From Patescibacteria group bacterium (GTDB taxonomy: Bacteria > Patescibacteriota > Minisyncoccia > UBA6257 > 2-01-FULL-56-20): a stretch of 64,000 nucleotides of DNA. The notes under the pieces are model-generated. The model ran no database searches. It saw nothing but the letters and a program-made list of their open reading frames with translations, and was not told the DNA's origin. The stretch is from the NCBI GenBank assembly GCA_038063755.1, contig JBBTUL010000012.1:572-64571 (forward strand), written 5' to 3'. The translations under genes and the position numbers were made by a program. Every line of letters begins with the position of its first letter. The stretch's first letter is position 1. Below are positions 1 through 28,372 of the stretch, in pieces.

Positions 1-700
1 GTCCCCGTCCGACCTGCGCGTTGTATATGTTGCGCCAAAGGGATCAGGTTGGTCGCTTTTTACCCTGGACACGAAAAGTAAAACCGCAAAACCGCAGAGC
101 CTTTCTTCTTTTTCTCACGAAGGACTCTTTCCTTCTTGGATTTTTCCGGACAAGATTTTTCTCTCCGAAAAGCCCTCTGCCCTTGTCGACACTTCGGTTT
201 TTAGCTTTGACCTCGCCAAAAAAATTCTTTCGCGAATAGTGCAGGGTCGTGGAGCGCTCGCGCTATGGGACAGGGACGCAAGCAGGGGGATTGTTTTTGT
301 TGGAAACGCGCGCGGAGGGGGATCTCTTGCTCTTGTAGACAGCAGCGGGAATATTGAAAAGCAGTTTTCTTTTGTCACGCTTCCTTCAAAGTGCGCCTTC
401 GAAACAAAAACGCTTGGTCCACAGGCGGGAGTAAAGGCAAAGAAAAAATCTTGGCTTGTTTGCGCCGTTCCTCGCGACAGAAGAGCCTTCGAATCCTCCA
501 TTCTCCCCGATGCGTATTTTCAGAAGGAGCTCCGCACCGAAGACGGCTTTTACCGCATCGACATCGAGACCGGAACGATTACCACGCTTTTTGACGAAGA
601 GGCGAGCTCTCTCGACGCAGCAGACGTGAAAACAAAAAACGGAAGGGTTTATTTCCTAAACCAATACGACAATTTTCTTTATAGCATCTCTTTGGAGTAG
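1..700 (+). CDS. hypothetical protein, 5'-truncated at window edge (beta-propeller-like Gly/Asp-rich repeats)
   Basis: Reading frame 2 is open from nt 2 through the stop at 698-700. The ORF-track entry 239..700 (GTG start) is the tail of this longer frame. Motifs such as GSGWSLFTLD and GALALWDRDASRGIVFVGN suggest a beta-propeller. It is followed by a hairpin terminator. Confidence 0.35.
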   Translation, partial: SPSDLRVVYVAPKGSGWSLFTLDTKSKTAKPQSLSSFSHEGLFPSWIFPDKIFLSEKPSALVDTSVFSFDLAKKILSRIVQGRGALALWDRDASRGIVFVGNARGGGSLALVDSSGNIEKQFSFVTLPSKCAFETKTLGPQAGVKAKKKSWLVCAVPRDRRAFESSILPDAYFQKELRTEDGFYRIDIETGTITTLFDEEASSLDAADVKTKNGRVYFLNQYDNFLYSISLE

Positions 701-3865: not shown

Positions 3866-3992
3866 GAACCTTTAATACTCTTCTTATAAACAGGTATAAC
3901 CCGGAAAAAGAACCATTCCATAAAGATATCAACAGTTCCCATAGTACAGTAACAACAGTAATAATATATTAACTAATAGTAATAATAGGAGA
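3866..3992. other. AT-rich dnaA-dnaN spacer; candidate oriC DNA-unwinding element
   Basis: A 127-nt intergenic stretch with very high A+T (aacagtaataatatattaactaatagtaataata) between dnaA and dnaN, where oriC lies in many bacteria. Confidence 0.35.
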
Positions 3993-5111
3993 ATGAACTT
4001 TGTTATTTTAAGAGATAAATTAAAAGAAGGGCTGGATATAGTTTCTCATTTCGTAAATGACGGAAATAATCTTCCCGTTTTAAAAAATATTCTCGTCCGA
4101 GCAGACGAAAATAAAATAACTCTTTCGGCAACAAATCTTGAAAGCGGAATTTCTTTTTATATTCCTTGCAAGGTAATTCAACAAGGATCGTTTACAGCTC
4201 CGGCAAATATTTTAAGCCAAGTTATAAATAATATTCAACAAGACAAAATAAACGTCGAACAGAAAAACAGTTTTTTTGAAATAAAAACAGAAAATTATCA
4301 AGCTTCGATTCAGGGAATTTCTTCGGAAGATTTTCCGATTATTCCAAGAATTAAAAACATAACGACCTCGCTCGAAATAGAAGGAAAAATATTAAAAGAG
4401 GCCCTTGATCAGACAACTACAGCAACGCAGTTTTCAGATCTTCGCCCAGAATTAAACAGCATTCTTTTTTCATACGGTTTGAATAATATTACTTTCGTAG
4501 GAACCGATAGCTTTCGATTAGCGGAAAAAAAACTCCAAGAAAGCCAATTCTCTTCAAACGAGAAAAAAGAATGGAGCGTTTTACTTCCTTTAAAAACAGC
4601 ACAAGAACTTTCGAAAACTATAAAGAACGAAGGGAAAATAAAAATAAATAAAGACGAAAACCAAATTCTTTTCAAAAGCGAAAACTTCGAAATAATTTCA
4701 AGAACAATTGAAGGAGCGTTTCCTGACTACCAAGCTATAATGCCAAAACAATTTTATGCAGAAATAACTGCTTCAAGAGAAGAGTTTATTAACGCCCTAA
4801 AACTCATTGGAATAATGGCCGATTTTGGAAACGAAATTACCGTTCGTATTTCTCCTGGGAAGAAAGCGATCGAGCTTTTTTCGAAAAGCAAGAACCAAGG
4901 AGATAATACATATGTTCTTTCAGCAAAGATTGACTGTAAGAAAGACGCGATAGAAACGAGTTTTAATTGGAGATTTTTACTCGAAGGGCTAAAAAGCATT
5001 TCCGCAGAAGAAATATTTTTTGGAATAAACGAAGAAAATAAACCAGCAATACTGCGTGCCCCACAAAAAGGATCGTATTTTTATATCCTTATGCCGATTC
5101 TTAAGGGATAG
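3993..5111 (+). CDS. dnaN: DNA polymerase III beta sliding clamp
   Basis: 372 aa, three-domain clamp architecture, directly downstream of dnaA. Confidence 0.9.
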   Translation: MNFVILRDKLKEGLDIVSHFVNDGNNLPVLKNILVRADENKITLSATNLESGISFYIPCKVIQQGSFTAPANILSQVINNIQQDKINVEQKNSFFEIKTENYQASIQGISSEDFPIIPRIKNITTSLEIEGKILKEALDQTTTATQFSDLRPELNSILFSYGLNNITFVGTDSFRLAEKKLQESQFSSNEKKEWSVLLPLKTAQELSKTIKNEGKIKINKDENQILFKSENFEIISRTIEGAFPDYQAIMPKQFYAEITASREEFINALKLIGIMADFGNEITVRISPGKKAIELFSKSKNQGDNTYVLSAKIDCKKDAIETSFNWRFLLEGLKSISAEEIFFGINEENKPAILRAPQKGSYFYILMPILKG

Positions 5112-5112
5112 A

Positions 5113-7752
5113 TCAGTAGAGGATAGAAAAGGATTTTCCAGTGCTTCCAGACTCATCTTCCGCTTCAACCGAAAGGATGTTTTGCGGAAAAAGAGGAGCA
5201 GAAAAAGAAAAACGGAGTTCATAGCTTGTTCCAAACGAGCCAAGGAAGGATTGTACTAAGCGCTCGTTAAAATAAACGCGAATAGTCTTCATGGGAGCCG
5301 AGCTTTTTAAGTTAGCGACAATAGAAACCGGATTTGTGTTCGTAAAGCTTCCCTCGGATGGATGGACAACCGTAATCTGCGGAGGAAAAAGGGGTTTTTG
5401 AGAGGCGAGGATGTCCGAGGCAGAATCCTGCTGAACAGGAGAAAATATTCCGAGATTGTCTTTTGCCCACGAAAGAACACCGAATTCCCAACGCAAGAAT
5501 TGAGAATCAGAGGCCGGATTTTGCGGAGGGGGGCCAAGAGGATTTTTTTTATCGACAAAATAAAGAATCGAATGAACCTCGCTACCCTCAAGGTAGTTTC
5601 CCCGCAAAATATTTTTTTCTGGAAAAACAGGATCCGGTTTTGAAAAAATTTCTGAAGGAACCGTCTTTAACGCCTCTCCAAAAAACTTACTCCAAGTTGG
5701 TATCGCGGCGAGAATGCTCGATCCTTGTTTTTGCATTGCCGAACTGTCGTTGTTTCCCGCCCAAACGCCCACAACGAGAGATGGGGTATATCCAACCGCC
5801 CATGCGTCAACGTAGTCGTTGCTTGTTCCTGTTTTTAGCGCAACCTCGTGATCCGAGAAAACCGTAAGCGCAAGACTGCTTGGAGAAAGAAGTCCGGAGC
5901 GCGCTTCAACGTCGGTAAGGATGCTGTTTACTAAGCGAGGAAGCTGCGGTTCCAAAACGATCTTTTCTTTGTTTATGTAAGACTCCAAAACTTCTCCATT
6001 TCGATCCCGAACTTCCATGACAAAGGATTGTTCGCGAAGGACGCCCTCTTGAGAAAGAACAGAATATGCTTTTACAAGATCGACAAGGCGAACTGCCCCA
6101 CCTCCCAAGACCAGGGAGAGGCCGTATCGCTCAGGATTAGTGAGCGTAGCAAGACCCAGGCTGTTCATGAGGCGCACCGTGTCGGATATTCCCGCAAGAT
6201 ACAGAACCTTAACCGCGGGGACGTTTATAGATTGCGCCAAGGCATTACGGAAAGAAACGGGGCCGCGAAATTTCTGATCAAAGTTTTCAGGGTGGAAACA
6301 TTGCGGGGGATCAGAGCTGAAATCCGGCTTTGCCGGACACGAAGAGATCGAAGAGAACTCTGTTGGAACATCAAAGACAACGGTTTCCGGAGTATAACCC
6401 TTCATGAACGCATTTAAATAAACAAAGGGCTTGAGAGATGATCCTGGCTGGCGCAGGCCCTGGAGGGCGACATTAAAATTTCCTTCATTTTTTATATCAA
6501 AATAATCTCGCGAACCAACAAGAGCAAGGATCTGGCCAGTCTTGGGATCTTCCGCGACAAGAGCAGCATTCTTCCCTTTGTAGAGGCGTTCGTTGTTTTC
6601 AGCCCCTTCTTTTACGGTTTTTTCGGCGATCTCCTGCAAATTCCAATCGAGCGTGGTAATAACGCGAAGTCCTCCTTTTTGCACTGCATCTTCTCCGTAC
6701 TTCTGTACCAAATGGTCTTGTACGGCGAAAACAAAATGAGGGGCTTTAATGCTTTGTGTTGATTGCGGCATGAAACGAACCGGTTCCGAAAGAGCAGATT
6801 TATATTGCGCATCCGTTATAAAGCCAAGATCTTTCATTTTTCTAAGAACGACATTAGCCCTTCTTAAAAGCTCGCTTGCTCGGGATCCCCAAGGAGAGTA
6901 ATAGCTTGGCGCCTGCGGAAGGGCTGCAAGAATTGATGACTCCCGAAGAGATATTTCGTGGACCGGCTTTCCGAAATAGGCCCGACTAGCCGCCTCTGCT
7001 CCGTAAAGGGTTGAGCCATAAGGGATTTCGTTTAAGTAAAGCTCAAGGATCTGATCTTTTGTGTAATTCTCTGAAAGGCGGACAGCAAGCATAAGTTCCC
7101 TGAGTTTTCGAGAGACGGTTTTTTCCGGACTCAGAAAAGCATTTCTGGCCAGCTGCTGGGTTATGGTAGAGCCGCCCTGACGAATTTCTCCGTGGCGCAG
7201 ATTTACGACGAAAGCCCGAACGATACCACGCAGATCGAATGCCGGCTCCGTATAAAACTTTTCGTCTTCAATCGCGATAGTCGCCTGTTCGAGATGGTCG
7301 GGTATTTCAACAAGAGAAGCAACGGTGCGCCTTTCTCCGGCGTTAATTTCGTACAAAAGAACCTCCCCGGTCCTATCATATATCTTTGTAGACTCGCTTA
7401 CTTCTCGCGCCCTGATCTGCTCAATCGTCGGAAGGGAGCGAAAAAGGAAAATCAAAAAAAGAGAAAAAGCAAAGAAAAAAACAAAGAAAGGGAAAAGAAA
7501 GAACCGATTGAAATTCTGCCCTCGACGAAGAAAAGAAAAAAAGCGACGCATGTTCCAATTATGAACAAACGCGCCAGGAAAGTCTATTTCCTGGCGCGTT
7601 TGTTCTATGGATAAAGCGAAGCTTTTATTCCTCGCTCTCTTCGGTGCCGAGAGGCTCATCGACCTCTTCTTCAAGAGGTTCTCCGATATCGTTCTCGCCG
7701 TCGTCAACGCCGGCGTCTCCCCCTGGAGGGGTAACACCCTCTTCTTCGTCAC
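5113..7752 (-). CDS. class A penicillin-binding protein (PBP1A-type, glycosyltransferase + transpeptidase)
   Basis: GT51 motifs (GGSTITQQLARN, RKLRELMLA) followed by a transpeptidase domain and a long Ser/Thr-rich C-terminal extension. The true start is probably the internal Met at 7551 (MRRFFSFLRRG, just before the TM helix), which would remove the overlap with the 7625-7891 ORF. Confidence 0.85.
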   Translation of the reverse strand: MTKKRVLPLQGETPALTTARTISENLLKKRSMSLSAPKRARNKSFALSIEQTRQEIDFPGAFVHNWNMRRFFSFLRRGQNFNRFFLFPFFVFFFAFSLFLIFLFRSLPTIEQIRAREVSESTKIYDRTGEVLLYEINAGERRTVASLVEIPDHLEQATIAIEDEKFYTEPAFDLRGIVRAFVVNLRHGEIRQGGSTITQQLARNAFLSPEKTVSRKLRELMLAVRLSENYTKDQILELYLNEIPYGSTLYGAEAASRAYFGKPVHEISLRESSILAALPQAPSYYSPWGSRASELLRRANVVLRKMKDLGFITDAQYKSALSEPVRFMPQSTQSIKAPHFVFAVQDHLVQKYGEDAVQKGGLRVITTLDWNLQEIAEKTVKEGAENNERLYKGKNAALVAEDPKTGQILALVGSRDYFDIKNEGNFNVALQGLRQPGSSLKPFVYLNAFMKGYTPETVVFDVPTEFSSISSCPAKPDFSSDPPQCFHPENFDQKFRGPVSFRNALAQSINVPAVKVLYLAGISDTVRLMNSLGLATLTNPERYGLSLVLGGGAVRLVDLVKAYSVLSQEGVLREQSFVMEVRDRNGEVLESYINKEKIVLEPQLPRLVNSILTDVEARSGLLSPSSLALTVFSDHEVALKTGTSNDYVDAWAVGYTPSLVVGVWAGNNDSSAMQKQGSSILAAIPTWSKFFGEALKTVPSEIFSKPDPVFPEKNILRGNYLEGSEVHSILYFVDKKNPLGPPPQNPASDSQFLRWEFGVLSWAKDNLGIFSPVQQDSASDILASQKPLFPPQITVVHPSEGSFTNTNPVSIVANLKSSAPMKTIRVYFNERLVQSFLGSFGTSYELRFSFSAPLFPQNILSVEAEDESGSTGKSFSILY

Positions 7753-8536: not shown

Positions 8537-10225
8537 ATGGCAGAGACGCCACAATCTATTCTTCAGGCAAAGCTTACGGACATCCATCGCCAAGCGGAGG
8601 AGCGTGATGCTGAGCGGAGGGCAAAAGACAGGAAGACTCCGTACGTTGATGTTCGGAAGCTTCCCGTCTCAATCGATGCGGTGAAATTCATTTCCGAAGA
8701 AGACGCACGGAAGGCGTATATTGCCGCGGTCCAGATGGGGACGAGCGAACTCGCTGTTATTGTGTATGATCCGCTCCTCGAAGAAACAAAAAAAGTCATA
8801 GGCGAGCTCGAGAAAAAAAACTACCACGCGAAGATGTTCGTGGTTTCGAAAAGCGGACTCGCGCAAGTTTGGAGAATGTACGAGTTCATTCCTCCAGAAG
8901 CAAAAGAGATCACTGGAAAGGTTGAAATAACCAAGAAGCGCCTCGAGGAGCTCTTGGCGAAGCTTACCACCATTGAGACCGTAAAGAAGGAGATCGAAGG
9001 ATTCGATTTTGGCCATCTTTCAACCACAAACCTCATCGAGGCGATTCTCGCCGGAGCCATGGCGAACAGAACCTCGGATATTCACTTCGAAGCGGAGGAA
9101 AAAACAGCCCGCATCAGATTTCGCATTGACGGGTTGCTTCACGATGTTGTCTCTGCACTTCCGGCGAAAAATTACGAATCGCTTGTGTCGCGCGTAAAAC
9201 TTTTCTCTGGACTGAAAATAAATATTCACGGAGAGGCGCAAGACGGGAGGTTTACTATTAAGTTGGAAAACAAAGAAATCGAAATGCGCGTTTCGATTAT
9301 TCCCTCAGAGTTTGGAGAAACCGTTGTTATGCGTATTCTCGACCCCGCTGCGATTATGACCGACCTTGAGCATCTGGGGCTGCGCGCGGACGACCTTGCC
9401 CTGGTAGACGAGGAGCTTCGGAGGCCGAATGGACTTATTTTAAACACCGGGCCAACCGGATCAGGAAAAACAACAACGCTTTACGCGTTTTTGCGGAAAC
9501 TAGTGAACCCCGAAACCAAGATTATAACCATCGAGGATCCAATTGAGTATCGCGTGGCGGGGGTTGAGCAAACACAGACGAACACAGAGGTCGGATACAC
9601 CTTTGCCGATGGGCTCCGAGCTATCGTGCGCCAGGATCCCGACGTCATTCTTGTCGGAGAAATTCGAGATTTTGAAACCGCCAACATTGCTCTTCAGGCA
9701 TCGCTTACCGGACACATGGTTTTTTCAACGCTTCATACGAACAGCGCAGTCGGTGCGGTTCCTCGGCTCGTAGACCTTGGAGTGAAGGCGGAGAGTATTG
9801 GCCCTGCGCTTTCTCTTATTATCGCCCAGAGGCTCGTCCGAGTTCTTTGTGAAAACTGCAAGAAGGCAGTGCCTACCCCTTCGGACTTAAAGAAAAAAAT
9901 TGAAAGCTTCTTTGAAAAACTTCCATCAAGAGTTGACCGTGCGCCCTACGAAACGATAAAAATGTTTTTTCCGGTAGGATGCGAGAAATGCAATATGCTT
10001 GGCTATAAGGGGAGAAGGGGAATTTTCGAATTCCTTCGCTGCGGAACGGAATTTCAGGAATTAGTGCTTAGTTCGTCGTCTGAGGTGGGGCTTCGCAAGT
10101 TTGCCAAAAAGCAAGAAATGGTTTCTATGCAGGAAGACGGAGTGCTAAAGACGCTTTTAGGCATTACCACATTCGAGGAGGTTGAGTCTGTCACTGGGCC
10201 TATTGTGTGGGAAGAGAAGGCGTGA
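8537..10225 (+). CDS. GspE/PilB-family type II/IV secretion (type IV pilus assembly) ATPase
   Basis: T2SSE N-domain, Walker A GPTGSGKTTT, Asp and His boxes, and a C4 zinc-binding motif (CENC...CEKC). Confidence 0.8.
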   Translation: MAETPQSILQAKLTDIHRQAEERDAERRAKDRKTPYVDVRKLPVSIDAVKFISEEDARKAYIAAVQMGTSELAVIVYDPLLEETKKVIGELEKKNYHAKMFVVSKSGLAQVWRMYEFIPPEAKEITGKVEITKKRLEELLAKLTTIETVKKEIEGFDFGHLSTTNLIEAILAGAMANRTSDIHFEAEEKTARIRFRIDGLLHDVVSALPAKNYESLVSRVKLFSGLKINIHGEAQDGRFTIKLENKEIEMRVSIIPSEFGETVVMRILDPAAIMTDLEHLGLRADDLALVDEELRRPNGLILNTGPTGSGKTTTLYAFLRKLVNPETKIITIEDPIEYRVAGVEQTQTNTEVGYTFADGLRAIVRQDPDVILVGEIRDFETANIALQASLTGHMVFSTLHTNSAVGAVPRLVDLGVKAESIGPALSLIIAQRLVRVLCENCKKAVPTPSDLKKKIESFFEKLPSRVDRAPYETIKMFFPVGCEKCNMLGYKGRRGIFEFLRCGTEFQELVLSSSSEVGLRKFAKKQEMVSMQEDGVLKTLLGITTFEEVESVTGPIVWEEKA

Positions 10226-22062: not shown

Positions 22063-23175
22063 ATGAAGGCTGTCGATTTAGGAAAAACAATTGGCGTCCT
22101 GGTTGCCGGGACCATGGGGGCCGGTATTTTTGCGCTTCCGGCGCTTTTTAGGGTATCCGGTTGGGCAACCGGCTTTTTTTATCTTTTTGCCCTCGGAGCC
22201 CTTGTCTCTTCCGTACACCTTCTTTACTGGAAGGTTCTCGAGAAAACGAACGGTGAGCATCGTCTTTTCGGGCTCGTTGAGAGATTTCTCGGGAAAAACT
22301 ACGCCGTATTCGCCTTTCTGCTTGTTGTTTTTGGTCTCGCGCTTGTCCTCCTTATCTATCTTCTTCTGGGCGAGAAGTTCCTAAGTTTTCTTTTCCCAGA
22401 GCTTAATGGGGTTGCGATTTATGCGTTTTGGATTGCCGCGTCAGTTCCTCTCTTTTTCGGAATAAAAAAAGTCGCAGGCGGCGAATCTCTCGTTGCTCTC
22501 GCAACAGGCGGGATTGCACTTTTCCTTTTCGCAAAGACACAAGAGCCGTTCGCAATTTTTGAAGGAAGCGCTTTTAGTTTAAAAAACATTGCCCTACCCT
22601 TCGGCCCAATCCTCTTCGCGGTTTCCGGATGGGTTTCGACACAAACAATGTTCAATGCCTGGAGAGCCAATAAGCGTCCGGGGACGCCTCGCTTTCTTAT
22701 TGCCGCCGGAACATTAACGGTGCTTTTAATCTATTCTATATTCGTGATGAGTACGGCACAGGTTGCGGGAGGTGTTTCTGGAGGGATAGATCTTCCTTCA
22801 TGGGCCGGAGTGTTCGGGAAAGAAATCACGACCATCATCGCTCTTTTTGGGCTACTTGCCGTTTGGGCCGCATACATCCCGCTTGCACTTGAAATAAAAA
22901 GCACGATGGAAAGCGACTTGCGTATGTCAAAAGCGCACTCTCTTCTTGTTGCACTTCTTACTCCCCTTGCATTATTCTCTCTCGGGCTCAAGAACTTTTT
23001 GGGTATAGTCGGTCTCGTGGGAGGAGTATTCGGTGCGGCTCAATATATTCTTTTGCTTCTTGTTGCAAAAAAAGCGCTCGACAAGAATACGTGGCAATCA
23101 GCGCTTATCGGACTTGGAATTGCAGTGTTTTCGCTCGGTGGAGCATATGAGATTTACCATTTCCTTTTCGCTTGA
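22063..23175 (+). CDS. amino acid transporter (Aa_trans/HAAAP-like, 10-11 TM)
   Basis: N-terminal GTMGAGIFALPALF motif typical of the amino acid/auxin permease and aromatic amino acid permease families. Confidence 0.55.
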   Translation: MKAVDLGKTIGVLVAGTMGAGIFALPALFRVSGWATGFFYLFALGALVSSVHLLYWKVLEKTNGEHRLFGLVERFLGKNYAVFAFLLVVFGLALVLLIYLLLGEKFLSFLFPELNGVAIYAFWIAASVPLFFGIKKVAGGESLVALATGGIALFLFAKTQEPFAIFEGSAFSLKNIALPFGPILFAVSGWVSTQTMFNAWRANKRPGTPRFLIAAGTLTVLLIYSIFVMSTAQVAGGVSGGIDLPSWAGVFGKEITTIIALFGLLAVWAAYIPLALEIKSTMESDLRMSKAHSLLVALLTPLALFSLGLKNFLGIVGLVGGVFGAAQYILLLLVAKKALDKNTWQSALIGLGIAVFSLGGAYEIYHFLFA

Positions 23176-23251
23176 GTATACTAGTGGGAGAATTGGAGGC
23201 GCAGAAAAAGCGCCCCGAAACGAAAGGCTTTTTATCACAAACTCGACAAAC

Positions 23252-23268
23252 CGCGCCCGTAGTTCAAC
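23252..23268 (+). repeat. 17-nt direct repeat CGCGCCCGTAGTTCAAC (copy 1); copy 2 at 23593-23609 is the 5' end of tRNA-Arg
   Basis: An exact 17/17 match of the two copies brackets the GIY-YIG ORF. Copy 1 is a truncated tRNA 5' fragment. Confidence 0.6.
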
Positions 23269-23324
23269 CCCGACGCGCGAAGCGGCCGGGGCTCCGACCC
23301 CAAAAGGCGTCGGAGCGGATAACC

Positions 23325-23588
23325 ATGAAAGGAATCGTATATATTCTTCAAGACAAGCTCGGCCGGTATTATATCGGAAGCACGGTTGATATTGATCGTC
23401 GAATGAAGCAGCACAAGGCTTGTCACACGGCGACAACAAAGCGAATGCAGAGCCCACGGCTGGTGCTCAAACAGGAATACGCCTCGATTGAGGAGGCAAG
23501 AAGAACCGAAGCGCGCCTGAAAAAACTAAAAAGAAAGGACTACATTGAAAAAATAGTCGCAGAAGGGTACATTAGAGGCGCTGGATAA
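23325..23588 (+). CDS. GIY-YIG nuclease domain protein (homing-endonuclease-like, free-standing)
   Basis: MKGIVYILQDKLGRYYIGSTVDIDRRMKQHK carries the GIY-YIG signature (G-I-V-Y...Y-Y-I-G-S-T...R...H). The Met at 23325 has a good context. Confidence 0.7.
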   Translation: MKGIVYILQDKLGRYYIGSTVDIDRRMKQHKACHTATTKRMQSPRLVLKQEYASIEEARRTEARLKKLKRKDYIEKIVAEGYIRGAG

Positions 23589-23593
23589 TTTTC

Positions 23594-23665
23594 GCGCCCG
23601 TAGTTCAACGGATAGAATGCATCCCTCCGAAGGATGAGATTGAAGTTCAATTCTTCACGGGCGCA
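23594..23665 (+). tRNA. tRNA-Arg (anticodon CCG)
   Basis: Manual fold: acceptor GCGCCCG/CGGGCGC, D-arm GTTC..GAAC, anticodon stem CATCC/GGATG with loop CTCCGAA (anticodon CCG), T-arm TGAAG-TTCAATT-CTTCA, discriminator A. CCA is not encoded. Confidence 0.8.
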
Positions 23666-23734
23666 CAAGAACTTGACCCTGGTGAGTGGTTGTGATAAAA
23701 ATCAAAGTAGCAAAGACTGAGGAAAGGGAAAACG

Positions 23735-24196
23735 ATGGCCAAGGCTCCTCGCGATATTTTAGCTGAATTTCGTGCCGCTAGTTCAGAAAAAATGCTTCGT
23801 ATGTCGTGGGAGGATTTTTTTGCGATACCGTTGCTAGCCAATGCCGCTGAGGCGAAACAGGACCACTTGGAGCGGATTGATTATGCGATCAGGCTGCGGA
23901 TGTTGAAGCTCCTCTCTGGGGGGGCGCCGCCGCTTTTTGAGCTTAAAGAGTCCTATAGGGCGGTAGCGACCCTCGCCGCTAGCGTCGCGAGCGCTCCGGC
24001 CAAGAGCGCCTTGGTCAAGAGAGAAGACTTGAGGATGGCAGGGAGATGGTGGGCCTTTGCCAGCCTTCTTGACTTGCATATTTTAAATCTTGACTCGCGA
24101 AAAGCCTTCGAAGATCAAGGCATCTCCAGGGGAGTTGAGGAAGCAATAGCCACCCCCGAAGACGACGACTCCGCCGCCCGGGGTCCCGAGTTGTGA
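23735..24196 (+). CDS. hypothetical protein encoded in a GC-rich segment
   Basis: 153 aa. G+C is visibly higher than the flanks. An intrinsic terminator follows. Confidence 0.45.
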   Translation: MAKAPRDILAEFRAASSEKMLRMSWEDFFAIPLLANAAEAKQDHLERIDYAIRLRMLKLLSGGAPPLFELKESYRAVATLAASVASAPAKSALVKREDLRMAGRWWAFASLLDLHILNLDSRKAFEDQGISRGVEEAIATPEDDDSAARGPEL

Positions 24197-24277: not shown

Positions 24278-24733
24278 CTAGAACCGACGATCCGATGTTC
24301 TGGTAAGCGCTTTGATGGTAAATGCCGAAAAACTGCTTGGGCAAAGAAGGAGATGCTCCAGCTTCCACCTGTCGCCCTCGGGGGCATCGACTTCTTGAAA
24401 ATACCTTCCGATTACGGGGTGCTTTGCCCCGCACGAAGGACAATCGCCATTTATTAGGTCTTTGATGGGGACAGCCTTGAATCCACGAGGGTCTTCGCCT
24501 TTAAGAAGTTCTTCAACAATAACCCTCTCGCCGGCACCGTCTAAAAAGAAAAAAGCATCCGAATGTTTTCCCGGGTCGTCTTCCCTCCAGGAAGAAAAGA
24601 TACCGCGAAATGCTTTTTCGAAAAGCAAGGTGCGGGCAATTTTTTCTTTAAGTTCGTCCACTCTTTTTGAGAGATCAGAAAAGCGCGATTCAAGAACTTT
24701 TCTGTGTTCTTCGGCTGTTCCCGCAAATCTCAT
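24278..24733 (-). CDS. coiled-coil + C4 zinc-ribbon protein (COG1579-like)
   Basis: Coiled-coil N-terminal part and a C-terminal CPSCG...C...C pattern. Start taken at the internal Met (MRFAGTAEEH). Confidence 0.4.
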   Translation of the reverse strand: MRFAGTAEEHRKVLESRFSDLSKRVDELKEKIARTLLFEKAFRGIFSSWREDDPGKHSDAFFFLDGAGERVIVEELLKGEDPRGFKAVPIKDLINGDCPSCGAKHPVIGRYFQEVDAPEGDRWKLEHLLLCPSSFSAFTIKALTRTSDRRF

Positions 24734-24834
24734 AGCGCCTCTTCTTGCGTCAGAGTTCTGGAAAAAAAATAGCACGCACGCGCCCCAAAAGCAAGAGATT
24801 TTCTCTATCGGTGCAGAAGGGATATAATTTCGAA

Positions 24835-25431
24835 ATGGACAAAGAAGAGGCATTGAAGAAACTTTTTCAAGAAGTAGTGAGCGACAAAAACCTTCCGCTT
24901 CAAGAGCCGAATTTGGTTTTTGGCGAAGGGAACGTTGACGCTGAGGTGATGTTTGTCGGGGAAGCGCCCGGGTTTCACGAAAACGAAGAGAAGCGTCCCT
25001 TTGTTGGGCGCGGCGGACAACTCCTGAACAGGAATATCGAAAAAATCGGCTGGAGACGCGAAGATGTTTATATTACGAATATCGTAAAGCGCAGGCCGCC
25101 CGACAATCGAGATCCGCTTCCGGAGGAGATCGAAGCTTATAAGCCCTACCTCACGAAGCAGATCGAGATCATAAATCCGCTTGTTGTGGCCACCCTCGGA
25201 AGGTTTTCAATGAATTATTTTTTGCCGGGCGCGAAGATAACACGAGACCAAGGAAAGGTGTTTCGCGTGGGAGGCCGATTCATCGTGCCAATACTCCATC
25301 CGGCGGCCGCGCTTCGCGCGACCGGAATGCTCGAAGCCTTTGAGGAGGTTTTTCAGAAGCTTCCTCGAATCGTTTCGCGATGCAAGAAAGAACTCGCAAA
25401 AACCGAGAACGAGAGTACGACCGCGAATTAA
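24835..25431 (+). CDS. uracil-DNA glycosylase, family 4
   Basis: GEGNVDAEVMFVGEAPGFHENEEKRPFVGRGGQLL and HPAAALR are UDG family 4 motifs. Confidence 0.8.
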   Translation: MDKEEALKKLFQEVVSDKNLPLQEPNLVFGEGNVDAEVMFVGEAPGFHENEEKRPFVGRGGQLLNRNIEKIGWRREDVYITNIVKRRPPDNRDPLPEEIEAYKPYLTKQIEIINPLVVATLGRFSMNYFLPGAKITRDQGKVFRVGGRFIVPILHPAAALRATGMLEAFEEVFQKLPRIVSRCKKELAKTENESTTAN

Positions 25432-25857: not shown

Positions 25858-28372
25858 AGAAACGATAACCGGAGAGCAGGTTCGTTCCCTCGAGCCATAC
25901 TTCGACGATCCGCGACTTGGCATGACGGCGCCCGGGCGACTACTGGTCCGGATGATCGGAGGGGTCGGGTACGCGGCGATTGTGGCCGCAACGCTAACGG
26001 CGCTTATTTCAGATGTTTCTTGGCTTCGTTTTTTGGGGATGTTTCTTTCACTCGTCGTGCTTGACCGGATTGTTCATGCAGGAAAAGGAGACATTCCACT
26101 CTCTGAGCTTCCCGAAAAGGGAAGGGTGAATCTTTTGCATCACACCACCCCGGCGGCGCTTCGCATTATCGAACGAGCAAGCGAGAGAAGTAAAATCAAA
26201 AAAACCGATTTTTATATCGAAGTTGCGCGGGAGCTTGTTCGGCTGCGGCAAATTCGCGAGGGCCTTGTTCGTCTCGATGTCCGCCCGGAGGAGTTCGAGG
26301 GCAAAATCAAAGAATTTTTAAAGAAAGAAAAGGCAGACGATACTGAAGAGACTAACAAGCTCATCTTTCGCATGATGCAACGATCGTTCGCTGGAGCTTT
26401 GGGACACCAGGATAAATACATTGACCCATCCGATCTTTTTTCGGCGCTTGCAGATGCTCCCGGATATACGGAGCGACTTTTCTCCACGTTTGATATCGAG
26501 GCGGGAGACCTTGAGCGCGCGTTGCTTTTTACGCTCGAACACAGATCTTCGTGGCTGAGAAGGATACCCCGCTCTCTCGGAGGCTTCGTGTTTGAGTCGG
26601 ATAGGCAACCGAGACATCGTGTTATGAATAGGGCTTGGACGGCGCGCCCAACCCCCACGCTTGATCGATACGGGGCAGACTTCACCGATGCGGCTCGATC
26701 CTCAAAAATTGGATTTTTAATAGGACACGAAGAAGAATACAACCGTTTAATAGAAGCGCTTTCGCGCCCGTCAAAACCAAACGCACTTTTGATCGGGGAT
26801 GCGGGGATTGGAAAAGAAACGATTATTTCTCATTTCGCATTCGCTCTCGTAAAAGACAAAGTGCCAAAAGCGCTTTTCGATAGGCGTTTGGTCGCGCTTG
26901 ACGTCGCGCGCCTCATCGCGGGAGCCGGTCCCGAAGAACTACAAGCGCGCCTCGCCGTCATTGTTGATGAAATTGTCGCGGCAGGAAATATTATTCTTTA
27001 TATTCCGGACCTTCATAATCTCGCGAAGACCTCAGGCGCCGCATATCTTTCAGCCGCGGACGCTCTTATGCCAATCATTTTAAGCGACCTTTTTCCGATC
27101 ATTGGGACCACATATCCGCGGGAGTTTAAAGAATACATAGAAAGCAGAAGTGATTTTCGCGGCGCGTTCGAGACCATTCAAGTGCAGGAGATATCGGAAA
27201 GCGAGGCTCAGACCGTCCTCGTATACGACAGCCTCATTCTTGAGAGGAAAACGGGAAAAGTCATAACGCTAGGGGCGATAAAGGGATCGGTGAGGCTTGC
27301 AAAAAAGTATTTTCGTTCAAAGTTCCTTCCCTCAAGCGCCGAAGACCTCTTAAAGAGCGCGCTTGCCTACGCCGAGCAGCATGATGAAAAAACCATAACG
27401 CCGGCGACAATTATTAAGGTTGCGGAGGAAAAAGTGAACATCCCGATTCACGAGGCAGACGGAAAAGAAGCCGAACGGTTGCTCAACATGGAGAGTCTTA
27501 TCCACGAACGCCTTATCGACCAGGAAGAGGCGGTAAAGGCCGTTTCAGACTCCCTGAGGGAATATCGGAGCGGACTTTCACGTCCCGGCGGGCCAATCGC
27601 AAGCTTCCTCTTTGTTGGACCGACCGGCGTCGGAAAGACAGAACTTGCGAAAACTCTCGCCACCATCGAGTTCGGGTCGAAAGAATCAATGGCGCGCTTC
27701 GACATGACCGAATATCAAGACAAACAGAGTTTTTACCGATTTATTGGAGCTCCGGATGGATCAACGCGCGGAGCTCTGACCGATGCGGTGAAAGAAAAAC
27801 CCTACTGCATTGTGCTGCTCGATGAATTTGAGAAAGCCTACCCGGACATTCTTGACCTTTTCCTCCAGGTTTTAGACGACGGAAGACTTACCAATAATCT
27901 TGGAGAAACAGTCGATTTTACCCACACGGTCATTATCGCAACATCAAACGCACATTCGGACATCATCAACTCCGCGCTTCGGGAAGGGCAACAGATGTCG
28001 GAAATCGCTGAATATTTAAGACGAAAGCTTACGGACGTGTTCAAGCCGGAACTTCTGAATCGATTTTCTCGAGTCGTGGTTTTTAAGAGCCTTAGCATGG
28101 CGGACATGAAAAAAGTTGCAGCACTTCAGCTTCGAGAAGTGGCTGAAACGGCCTCGGGCCGCGGCATCACGCTTACATTTGACGAGGAAGTAATAAGCGA
28201 ACTTGCGAAACTTGGATACGATCCGGCGTTCGGTGCCCGACCATTACGGAGGGTGATAGACGAGAAAATAAGAAGCGCTCTCGCATCAAGCATTCTTGAG
28301 AAAAAATCTCCGCGAGGAACGGCGTTTCGTGTATCGATAAAAGACGGGGCATTCGTATTTTCTCTGGTATAG
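25850..28372 (+). CDS. ClpB/ClpC-like double-AAA+ chaperone with atypical hydrophobic N-terminal region
   Basis: NBD1 with degenerate P-loop LIGDAGIGKET, NBD2 with LFVGPTGVGKTELAK, and a sensor-2/ClpB_D2-small region. The N-terminal ~80 aa contain two predicted TM helices instead of a Clp_N domain. Confidence 0.7.
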   Translation: MYRETITGEQVRSLEPYFDDPRLGMTAPGRLLVRMIGGVGYAAIVAATLTALISDVSWLRFLGMFLSLVVLDRIVHAGKGDIPLSELPEKGRVNLLHHTTPAALRIIERASERSKIKKTDFYIEVARELVRLRQIREGLVRLDVRPEEFEGKIKEFLKKEKADDTEETNKLIFRMMQRSFAGALGHQDKYIDPSDLFSALADAPGYTERLFSTFDIEAGDLERALLFTLEHRSSWLRRIPRSLGGFVFESDRQPRHRVMNRAWTARPTPTLDRYGADFTDAARSSKIGFLIGHEEEYNRLIEALSRPSKPNALLIGDAGIGKETIISHFAFALVKDKVPKALFDRRLVALDVARLIAGAGPEELQARLAVIVDEIVAAGNIILYIPDLHNLAKTSGAAYLSAADALMPIILSDLFPIIGTTYPREFKEYIESRSDFRGAFETIQVQEISESEAQTVLVYDSLILERKTGKVITLGAIKGSVRLAKKYFRSKFLPSSAEDLLKSALAYAEQHDEKTITPATIIKVAEEKVNIPIHEADGKEAERLLNMESLIHERLIDQEEAVKAVSDSLREYRSGLSRPGGPIASFLFVGPTGVGKTELAKTLATIEFGSKESMARFDMTEYQDKQSFYRFIGAPDGSTRGALTDAVKEKPYCIVLLDEFEKAYPDILDLFLQVLDDGRLTNNLGETVDFTHTVIIATSNAHSDIINSALREGQQMSEIAEYLRRKLTDVFKPELLNRFSRVVVFKSLSMADMKKVAALQLREVAETASGRGITLTFDEEVISELAKLGYDPAFGARPLRRVIDEKIRSALASSILEKKSPRGTAFRVSIKDGAFVFSLV

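Follow-up and report, generated by a model that had tools for sequence, protein, structure and literature searches.

How did a gene for a small GIY-YIG nuclease come to lie directly 5′ of an intact tRNA-Arg(CCG) gene, with the beginning of that tRNA gene repeated on the far side of the nuclease gene? The question is raised by a 64,000-nucleotide stretch of DNA from a Patescibacteria group bacterium (contig JBBTUL010000012.1 of assembly GCA_038063755.1; hereafter the window, meaning the whole stretch that was analysed). The initial annotation of the window took this arrangement for the footprint of a tiny selfish element that had targeted the tRNA gene and duplicated its end. We think it rather likely that the window holds an occupied copy of a very small selfish element that recurs at the 5′ side of tRNA genes in Patescibacteria, and on our best reading the family includes non-autonomous derivatives. 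A selfish element fits better than a tRNA leader, an intron, the scar of an integrase or chance because the site occurs empty in relatives, because the arrangement recurs at other tRNA genes and because the duplication is in each case local.

An insertion in front of tRNA-Arg(CCG)

The 17-nt repeat CGCGCCCGTAGTTCAAC noted in the initial annotation is present in exactly two copies in the window, at 23252–23268 and 23593–23609, with no third copy even at two mismatches; none of 100 shuffles gave a match when two mismatches were allowed. As annotated, the second copy opens an intact tRNA-Arg(CCG) gene (23594–23666, plus strand), which is the single tRNA called by ARAGORN in the 64 kb, scores 65 bits against the Rfam tRNA model (cutoff 29) and has a fully paired acceptor stem. 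The open reading frame (ORF) for the nuclease was also correctly placed: it lies at 23325–23588 on the plus strand (ATG at 23325, TAA at 23586–23588) and encodes an 87-aa protein of the UPF0213/Slx1-like type that matches Pfam GIY-YIG (PF01541) with an E-value of 8.5e-13 (48.9 bits, cutoff 22.6). A 5-nt spacer, ttttc (23589–23593, plus strand), separates its stop codon from the tRNA, and tblastn found no second copy in the window.

The first copy of the repeat had been described as a truncated 5′ fragment of the tRNA. It is indeed a 5′ copy, but one that continues to about tRNA position 22 after a hairpin module. Its first part (a′, 23253–23267, plus strand) reproduces tRNA-Arg positions 1–15 exactly, covering the 5′ strand of the acceptor stem, U8, A9, the 5′ strand of the D-stem and the start of the D-loop. 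Together with C23252 and C23268 it makes up the 17-nt repeat, both end bases of which are ambiguous, C23252 being position −1 of the tRNA and C23268 being also the first base of a hairpin. Two hairpins follow on the plus strand: H1 at 23268–23291 (ccccgac, a 10-nt loop, gccgggg; a 7-bp stem with one A·C mismatch) and H2 at 23292–23315 (ctccgac, a 10-nt loop, gtcggag; a perfect 7-bp stem). The initial annotation had recognized H2 and overlooked H1. The tRNA copy then resumes as b′ (CGGATAA, 23316–23322, plus strand; compare CGGATAGAA in the tRNA), in which CGGATA at 23316–23321 matches tRNA positions 16–21 exactly and position 22 is mismatched; two more bases lead to the ATG. In the upstream relic, a copy of tRNA positions 1 to about 22 is split cleanly between positions 15 and 16 by a 48-nt twin-hairpin module, and because the relic holds the hairpins and the resumed tRNA copy, the statement that only the ORF lies between the repeats has to be withdrawn. 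The 3′ arm of H2 holds GGAG, 10–13 nt ahead of the ATG, and both hairpins belong to a family-wide type, NNCCGAC-loop-GTCGGN′N′. We note that a mechanical list of ORFs gives for this region a 138-aa ORF starting at a TTG (23172–23588) whose reading frame crosses the tRNA copy and the hairpins; database members of the family that are 112–147 aa long, in which the match starts at residue 30–60, probably have starts mis-called in the same manner.

For the site without its insert we searched relatives of the permease encoded upstream and read the contigs of the two closest, L081 (65% identical) and L082 (54%). Gene order is kept in both, with a SLOG protein, a small protein and the permease followed by a uracil-DNA glycosylase (UDG) and ClpB, and tRNA-Arg(CCG) stands directly after the permease, 76 nt (L081) and 18 nt (L082) past its stop codon. 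At this tRNA neither contig has an ORF, hairpins or an extra copy of the tRNA 5′ end, so that the same tRNA in the same synteny is insert-free, in agreement with the insertion proposed in the initial annotation. The window, L081 and L082 share an invariant block at the permease stop codon, TGAGTATACT..GTGG, which scores as a −10-like element; the L082 tRNA starts 11 nt after it, and the leader in the window aligns to that of L081 up to the start of the L081 tRNA, which coincides with the start of a′. Because two syntenic relatives have the same tRNA without the insert, the additional sequence is an insertion and not a leader: 341 bp have been added between the probable promoter region of the tRNA and the tRNA body. 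To judge from its sequence, the −10-like hexamer TATACT (23177–23182, plus strand), which lies just past the permease stop codon in a promoter-like TTTACC-18-TATACT arrangement, is probably the native promoter of the tRNA, and we infer that it would drive the whole unit of element and tRNA.

A family of nuclease genes and hairpin modules at tRNA genes

We used an alignment of 30 homologues of the nuclease to fetch 80 loci, on contigs representing one genome per species and all from metagenome-assembled genomes (MAGs) of Patescibacteria type. In 68 of the 76 evaluable loci a tRNA gene on the same strand starts at most 24 nt after the stop codon of the ORF (the gap ranges from −10 to +24 nt across the family), so the search for further GIY-YIG genes beside tRNAs, as suggested in the initial annotation, finds them in abundance. 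The other 8 loci are tandem or mirror forms, have an interrupted tRNA or carry a solo module that separates the ORF from the tRNA, and because these exceptions are also tRNA-associated forms every evaluable locus is tRNA-linked. Thirteen anticodon species are involved (Arg GCG, TCT, CCG and TCG; Thr TGT, GGT and CGT; Val GAC and TAC; Phe, Ile, His and Ala), and in 20 loci the tRNA's own T8-A9-G10 serves as the stop codon of the ORF. The same structure is present in ~150 independent assemblies.

The 5′ end of the local tRNA is repeated 70–115 nt before the start of the ORF in most loci, and over 10–15 nt this upstream copy is identical to the downstream tRNA in 25 loci and 1–2 nt off in 11. It agrees with the particular tRNA that follows, be it Arg, Thr, Val, Phe, Ile, His or Ala, which argues, as the initial annotation held, for a duplication and not a conserved tRNA leader. 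The hairpin module sits cleanly between tRNA positions 15|16, or 10|11 in one protein clade, and is followed by b′, a few nucleotides from the local tRNA's own D-loop and D-stem. The class of junction tracks the protein clade, and tRNA identity switches inside clades. Acceptor stems are perfectly paired in 70 of 71 element-adjacent tRNAs, the lone mispaired stem being that of L009 (3001–3350). Here the intact tRNA-Thr looks chimeric, with a 5′ strand GCCGCCT and a 3′ strand AAGTGGC that fits GCCACTT, and the upstream relic has a third acceptor type, GCCAGAA.

Three further observations concern the linkage to tRNA genes. In L079 (3270–3560) a long insert appears to interrupt the tRNA after the ORF (TCCGGCGTAGCTCAGTGGTAGAGCAGTTGGCTGTGAA...), past the anticodon stem; ARAGORN does not call this tRNA, and no Rfam family reaches the gathering threshold. 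L087 encodes, 1.7 kb from the family member, a second and different small GIY-YIG protein (3888–4240, minus strand; 83 aa, ending ..GRNWIKNSVKIR), and 15 nt after this gene lies a same-strand tRNA-Ser(TGA). About ten of the 80 loci also have a tRNA-Ser(TGA) within ~0.5–2.6 kb of the element. The tRNA linkage may extend to other small GIY-YIG subfamilies.

Hairpins are carried by 72 of 81 loci, 160 of them paired in total and 133 with perfect 7-bp stems. The inner five pairs are fixed in sequence (CCGAC/GTCGG), and the outer two occur as three to four Watson-Crick types with 94% pairing. Because the outer pairs covary while the inner five stay fixed, comparison of the sequences indicates that the stem is real and that its fixed core is probably read by a protein. 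Loops are 3–60 nt long, and some contain a nested copy of the same hairpin. In the 230 nt ahead of the ORF the hairpins reach ~50 times the density seen in the rest of the loci, where most of the matches adjoin other tRNAs or relics of tRNAs; at loci whose tRNA copy has decayed, 77% of the hairpins are perfect. An Rfam search at E ≤ 1 for an RNA family to which the hairpins might belong returned tRNA alone, and four related loci likewise returned tRNAs alone. The window contains 7 matches to CCGAC..GTCGG (2.1 expected). Two that we examined are inside long ORFs: that at 9639–9657 encodes ...ILVGEIRD... in a 562-aa ORF, and that at 27620–27633 encodes GPTGVGKT, of Walker-A type, in an 840-aa ORF that is ClpB-like by position and synteny. 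These two matches are coincidental and unrelated to the module, whose hairpins are confined, within the window, to this one locus.

The protein, a 100% identical copy of which is annotated in a Patescibacteria MAG, is predicted to be a working nuclease on the strength of its conserved catalytic residues, its selection and its modeled fold. In 30 aligned family members Y6, Y16, G18, R26 and H30 are invariant and E62 is present in at least 90%; we take the catalytic roles of these residues to be those of their counterparts in I-TevI and UvrC. This clade also has a conserved basic C-terminal helix (KKLKRKDYIEKI..DGYIK). The ratio of nonsynonymous to synonymous substitution rates (dN/dS) is ~0.1 in six closely related pairs, indicating purifying selection. 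An AlphaFold2 model (predicted local distance difference test score, pLDDT, 84.8) has the strand-strand-helix-helix-strand-helix-helix order of the GIY-YIG fold, and the top Foldseek matches to it are UPF0213, Slx1 and the N-terminal domain of UvrC, with a root-mean-square deviation of 2.0 Å over 71 residues for Slx1. A profile search of the PDB ranked the same kinds of protein highest (1zg2, BH0048, E 7.1e-11; 1ywl, EF2693, 9.8e-8; Slx1, 5e-4), with I-TevI distant at 2.4e-3. NCBIfam gave nothing more than a sub-threshold N-terminal match to grpIintron_endo, and PHROGs gave weak 'homing endonuclease' matches to the N-terminal part alone. The protein is thus of the small single-domain UPF0213/Slx1 type and not of the I-TevI/Seg type, and the likeness to a homing endonuclease suggested in the initial annotation stays tentative. 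About 540 clusters at 50% identity match the family at E ≤ 1e-10. A phage origin was considered and rejected, the family being essentially absent from viral contigs: among 2.9 million of these we found four distant relatives alone (34–47% identity).

The module also occurs without the ORF. Scanning metagenome contigs for the module itself with the pattern TAGCTCAG-H1-H2-TTGG yielded at least 120 stretches, and among the matches listed 79 modules could be evaluated: 55 are solo forms, consisting of a split tRNA copy, 10–57 nt and an intact tRNA with no ORF, 14 are followed by an ORF and then a tRNA, and the rest are tandem or mirror forms. Among these matches ORF-less copies are therefore ~4 times as frequent as ORF-bearing ones; they stand at Val, Thr, Ile, Phe, Lys, Met, Ala and Arg tRNA genes, and their acceptor strand is identical to that of the downstream tRNA in 36 of 55 cases as scored, several of the scored mismatches looking like a 1-nt offset in the ARAGORN start. 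ORF-less copies keep the cis module and the same target context and so fit non-autonomous derivatives of the kind known as miniature inverted-repeat transposable elements (MITEs). The ends of the duplicated segment are ragged: the left one falls between +1 and about −10, the right one between positions 19 and 29. L115 has a perfect tandem duplication of [−10..27]. The ORF is internally deleted in L019 and L120. Tandem reinsertion is seen in L002, L019, L020 and L062; in L002, L020 and L062 the tRNA copy is preceded by what is left of an earlier ORF copy, its 3′ end. Mirror forms (intact tRNA, ORF, hairpins, 3′ part of a tRNA) occur in L025, L046, L051, L132 and L139. Removal of the module in silico restores a tRNA call in 2 of ~200 cases, both with an intact paralogue beside them, and because it almost never restores a tRNA the interrupted copies are dead genes and not introns.

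About a quarter of loci have a second hairpin-split relic, of the 3′ part of a tRNA, right after the intact tRNA. We also observed relics of tRNA 3′ ends (..CCTGGCGAGGGCAC) 3′ of tRNA-Arg(CCG) in the window (23677–23690), in L081 (5272–5316) and in L082 (5358–5395). The T-loop of the L081 relic is split by a perfect palindrome (CCTGCCTGCC/GGCAGGCAGG) and that of L082 by a different GC-rich insert, so that these 3′-side sequences form a second kind of hairpin-split tRNA relic.

Mobility, rival explanations and a possible mechanism

The selfish nature proposed in the initial annotation is supported by the patchy presence of the element, by tandem reinsertions, deleted ORFs and abundant ORF-less derivatives, and by the fact that the element can be far more alike between genomes than the host sequences that flank it. 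In the closest pair of elements, L022 and L045, the proteins are 86% identical (dS 0.48) and the hairpins ~92%, the flanking host proteins are 30–35% identical, and homology begins exactly at the tRNA copy. L036 and L063 have nothing in common but the element and the tRNA, and the same is true of L001 and L062. At a syntenic tRNA-Phe locus two protein clades with different junction classes are found in different genomes. A hairpin-split tRNA copy stands beside the ORF in 72 of 81 loci, yet an intact copy of the same sequence remains. A selfish element is favored, in addition, because the cis module is conserved, the nuclease gene is under selection, and decay products and non-autonomous copies exist.

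Several points weigh against this account. Identical proteins (P0075, in 24 contigs read; P0002, in 14) occur at one locus each, and the contigs read for them give no sign of recent multi-copy transposition. Strong purifying selection and abundant well-preserved solo modules could equally reflect a host function, and the solo-to-ORF ratio was obtained with a pattern that demands perfect core arms and one type of D-loop. Chimeric acceptor stems, sought as a signature of homing, were found in L009 alone. A plain cargo consisting of the hairpins, b′, the ORF and segment a would predict a donor-type acceptor strand after jumps, whereas both copies are local; target-site duplication, for its part, would not put the hairpins inside the left copy. 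Indeed, no simple scheme gives local copies after jumps between tRNA species with hairpins in the left copy. Since the presumed target persists in the intact tRNA, self-cleavage would have to be tolerated or prevented. Finally, imperfect pairs in the hairpins (21 G·T against 15 A·C) give no verdict on whether the hairpin acts as RNA or DNA.

One may ask whether the twin-hairpin module is itself the mobile unit, a MITE-like or transposon-like sequence that inserts not by homing but by transposition, through staggered cuts that leave a target duplication of variable length, with the GIY-YIG protein acting in trans as nuclease or 'transposase' and encoded in a minority of copies. The excess of solo over ORF-bearing modules (55 to 14 among the matches listed) suits this idea, as do the ragged ends of the duplication (+1 to ~−10; 19 to 29), which resemble a variable target-site duplication, the perfect tandem duplication in L115, the nested hairpin-in-loop copies, which suggest self-propagating hairpin units, and the better conservation of the hairpins than of the tRNA copy. 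We nevertheless consider it unlikely: the hairpins lie within the left copy, whereas a transposon would sit between the copies, we saw no identical elements at different loci, and hydrolytic GIY-YIG nucleases are not known to have strand-transfer activity. Improbable to a further degree, in our estimation, is a benefit to the host, whereby the split copy would be a structured leader for transcription, processing or stability of the tRNA and the GIY-YIG protein a co-transcribed housekeeping repair nuclease. The dN/dS of ~0.1, the great frequency of well-preserved modules before many tRNAs even without the ORF, the fixation of the element in 24 of 24 contigs read for one species, and the fact that the closest solved relatives are chromosomal UPF0213 proteins are all compatible with such a role. 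Against it, two syntenic relatives lack the element entirely at the same tRNA, the partner tRNA differs inside protein clades, the tandem copies, truncated ORFs, mirror forms and 3′ relics resemble debris, and a leader copy would be expected to compete with the tRNA's own acceptor strand.

The two remaining explanations are, in our view, very improbable. An unconventional tRNA intron or split tRNA, in which the interrupted gene would become functional once the hairpins are removed at the RNA level, is suggested by the position of hairpins at landmarks of the cloverleaf (15|16 in the D-loop, the anticodon loop of His and Thr relics and, for L046, the variable loop) and by the non-intron insertions of rRNA genes of the candidate phyla radiation (CPR), some of which encode GIY-YIG proteins (PMC11270868). 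This reading was rejected on the in-silico removal of the module, which restores a tRNA call in 2 of ~200 modules, and is largely refuted: interrupted copies are nearly always truncated (to 1–~24 or 8–73), an intact tRNA is always adjacent, and there is no match to an Rfam intron or ribozyme at E up to 1. The other, that the repeat is the attachment-site scar of an integrase-mediated island or prophage, or else a chance or assembly duplication, recalls the classical duplication of part of a tRNA gene by integrative elements and the relics of tRNA 3′ ends downstream of the tRNA in the window and its relatives. For the 5′ structure it is refuted, since the 5′ end is what is duplicated, the insert measures 341 bp, and the neighbors (the permease, proteins without a Pfam match and UDG) include no integrase; the repeat has zero chance expectation, and an artefact is excluded by the ~150 independent assemblies with the same structure.

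How would the selfish element work? We suggest that it is promoterless, and that the promoter of the tRNA would transcribe element and tRNA as one precursor from which the cut of RNase P at tRNA +1 would separate mRNA and tRNA. Where the stop codon of the ORF is U8-A9-G10 of the tRNA, full-length protein could therefore be made from the unprocessed precursor alone, so that expression would presumably be low. The nuclease, a relative of the structure-specific Slx1 and too small to read a site that is both long and asymmetric, probably recognizes the hairpin module, the D-arm-coding part of tRNA genes, or both. An attractive idea is that it might recognize, by structure, folded tRNA-gene DNA, because the boundaries of the element fall at landmarks of the cloverleaf and, again, because of the relationship to Slx1. 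A DNA break at or near tRNA position 15|16 (10|11 in one protein clade) might then be repaired by recombination with an occupied copy, which would bring hairpins, and in some cases the ORF as well, into the broken gene. The survivors would be those products that keep an intact tRNA or regenerate it through a partial tandem duplication, and by this filter the hairpin-split copy would be a target site both disrupted and immune. Modules lacking the ORF would be non-autonomous or decayed, either mobilized in trans or left behind by a cycle of gain, decay and loss of the type known for homing endonuclease genes (HEGs). Among specific schemes we considered Campbell-type integration of a circle, homing by synthesis-dependent strand annealing, duplication by a staggered cut, and tandem duplication followed by homing of the hairpins; each fits some of the standard, mirror, tandem and solo forms, and none fits them all.

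Relation to known systems and minor features of the locus

By analogy, the best precedent would seem to be SegB of phages T4 and T6, a free-standing GIY-YIG homing endonuclease of the Seg type that recognizes a conserved motif of tRNA genes, the T-psi-C stem-loop (PMC2330249). SegB is enriched beside tRNAs and drives tandem amplification of tRNA and nuclease genes, with a junction that joins the 5′ end of the tRNA to the 3′ end of segB (PMC13096335). The two systems share a GIY-YIG catalytic domain, a gene placed among or next to tRNA genes, presence or absence between relatives, and tandem units, for which the SegB amplification junction offers a parallel. They differ in that SegB is phage-borne, ~220 aa long and equipped with DNA-binding modules, whereas the protein described here consists of one 87-aa domain of UPF0213/Slx1 type and is encoded on bacterial chromosomes; SegB loci are without the hairpin module, the hairpin-split tRNA copy and ORF-less derivatives, and the motif of SegB is in the T-arm, in contrast to the presumed D-arm target here.

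In sequence, fold, size and single-domain structure the closest proteins are those of UPF0213/COG2827 (BH0048, 1zg2; EF2693, 1ywl) and Slx1. To our knowledge these have not been reported as tRNA-linked or mobile, and this clade is set apart from them by its basic C-terminal helix and its obligatory tRNA and hairpin context. Prophages, integrative and conjugative elements and islands that use tRNA genes also carry or duplicate part of the gene, so that their insertion does no harm, and leave an intact tRNA and a relic direct repeat, but they depend on tyrosine or serine recombinases, use the tRNA 3′ end and are kilobases long, whereas here the 5′ end is duplicated, the insert is 0.1–0.35 kb and a hydrolytic nuclease is the sole protein. 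The small size, the sequence-fixed hairpin cis signal with covarying positions, and the excess of hairpin-only non-autonomous copies over protein-coding ones are reminiscent of IS200/IS605 insertion sequences, with their palindrome-associated transposable elements (PATEs) and MITEs, and of repetitive extragenic palindromes and their associated tyrosine transposases (REP/RAYT). Those systems, however, act on single-stranded DNA through HUH (Y1) transposases, leave the target unduplicated and show no specificity for tRNA genes; the sole ORF here encodes a GIY-YIG protein and no HUH protein is present, the hairpins are at one position, and the target is partially duplicated. Selfish insertions in genes for structural RNAs include, finally, HEG-bearing group I introns of bacterial tRNA genes and the CPR rRNA insertions that encode GIY-YIG or LAGLIDADG proteins. 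A survey of the latter, in the same host clade, describes sparse GIY-YIG-encoding insertions that are neither group I nor group II and leaves tRNA unmentioned (PMC11270868). In the element described here, by contrast, there is no splicing, and gene function is kept by duplication.

We found no description of a tRNA-linked GIY-YIG or hairpin element in CPR bacteria in the searchable full-text literature. The element combines features of free-standing HEGs, tRNA-targeting integrative elements and hairpin MITEs, with a substantial chance of warranting a separate class. A more specific proposal, which we advance tentatively and rate as somewhat less than probable, is that of a new minimal class of mobile element specific to CPR/Patescibacteria: a structure-specific, Slx1-like nuclease of the GIY-YIG type and a twin-hairpin cis module of fixed sequence that would colonize the D-arm-coding position of tRNA genes, perhaps reading cloverleaf-like folded DNA, would partially duplicate the target, would borrow the tRNA's promoter and its U8-A9-G10 as stop codon, and would leave ORF-less derivatives at most tRNA genes of a genome. 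If true, this would be the smallest known class of nuclease-driven mobile DNA (0.1–0.35 kb), widespread in a huge and poorly understood radiation, and it would use an undescribed trick, in which the 5′ part of an essential and ultra-conserved tRNA gene is duplicated and the spare copy is split by hairpins while the real gene stays intact. It would explain why, in Patescibacteria, many 'GIY-YIG family proteins' are mis-annotated, ORFs are called too long and peculiar fragments of pseudo-tRNAs occur, and it would supply the UPF0213 branch of GIY-YIG nucleases, still enigmatic, with a biological role that can be tested. It would also tie in with the recent result that phage SegB reshapes tRNA loci, make a compact nuclease with a defined hairpin ligand available for biochemistry, and provide a marker for horizontal exchange among CPR bacteria.

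Two minor features of the locus in the window lie outside the repeat. A perfect 12-nt inverted repeat, with its left arm TTTTTATCACAA at 23229–23240 and its partner TTGTGATAAAAA at 23690–23701, brackets the whole unit from tRNA copy to tRNA and was reached in none of 200 shuffles of the window; whether it is part of the element is uncertain. A leader–trailer processing stem formed by such a repeat was rejected as not general, p ≤ 0.05 being found in 8 of 66 loci with a median best match of 7 nt. Between the tRNA and UDG the window has two ORFs without a Pfam match (23735–24196, plus strand, 153 aa; 24278–24853, minus strand, 191 aa), and because relatives carry other small ORFs there the region 3′ of the tRNA is variable. 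In L082 it holds five extra small genes (5632–7656), one of them encoding a SocA_Panacea domain protein, which are missing from the window and from L081 at that position and probably constitute a small island on the 3′ side of the tRNA.

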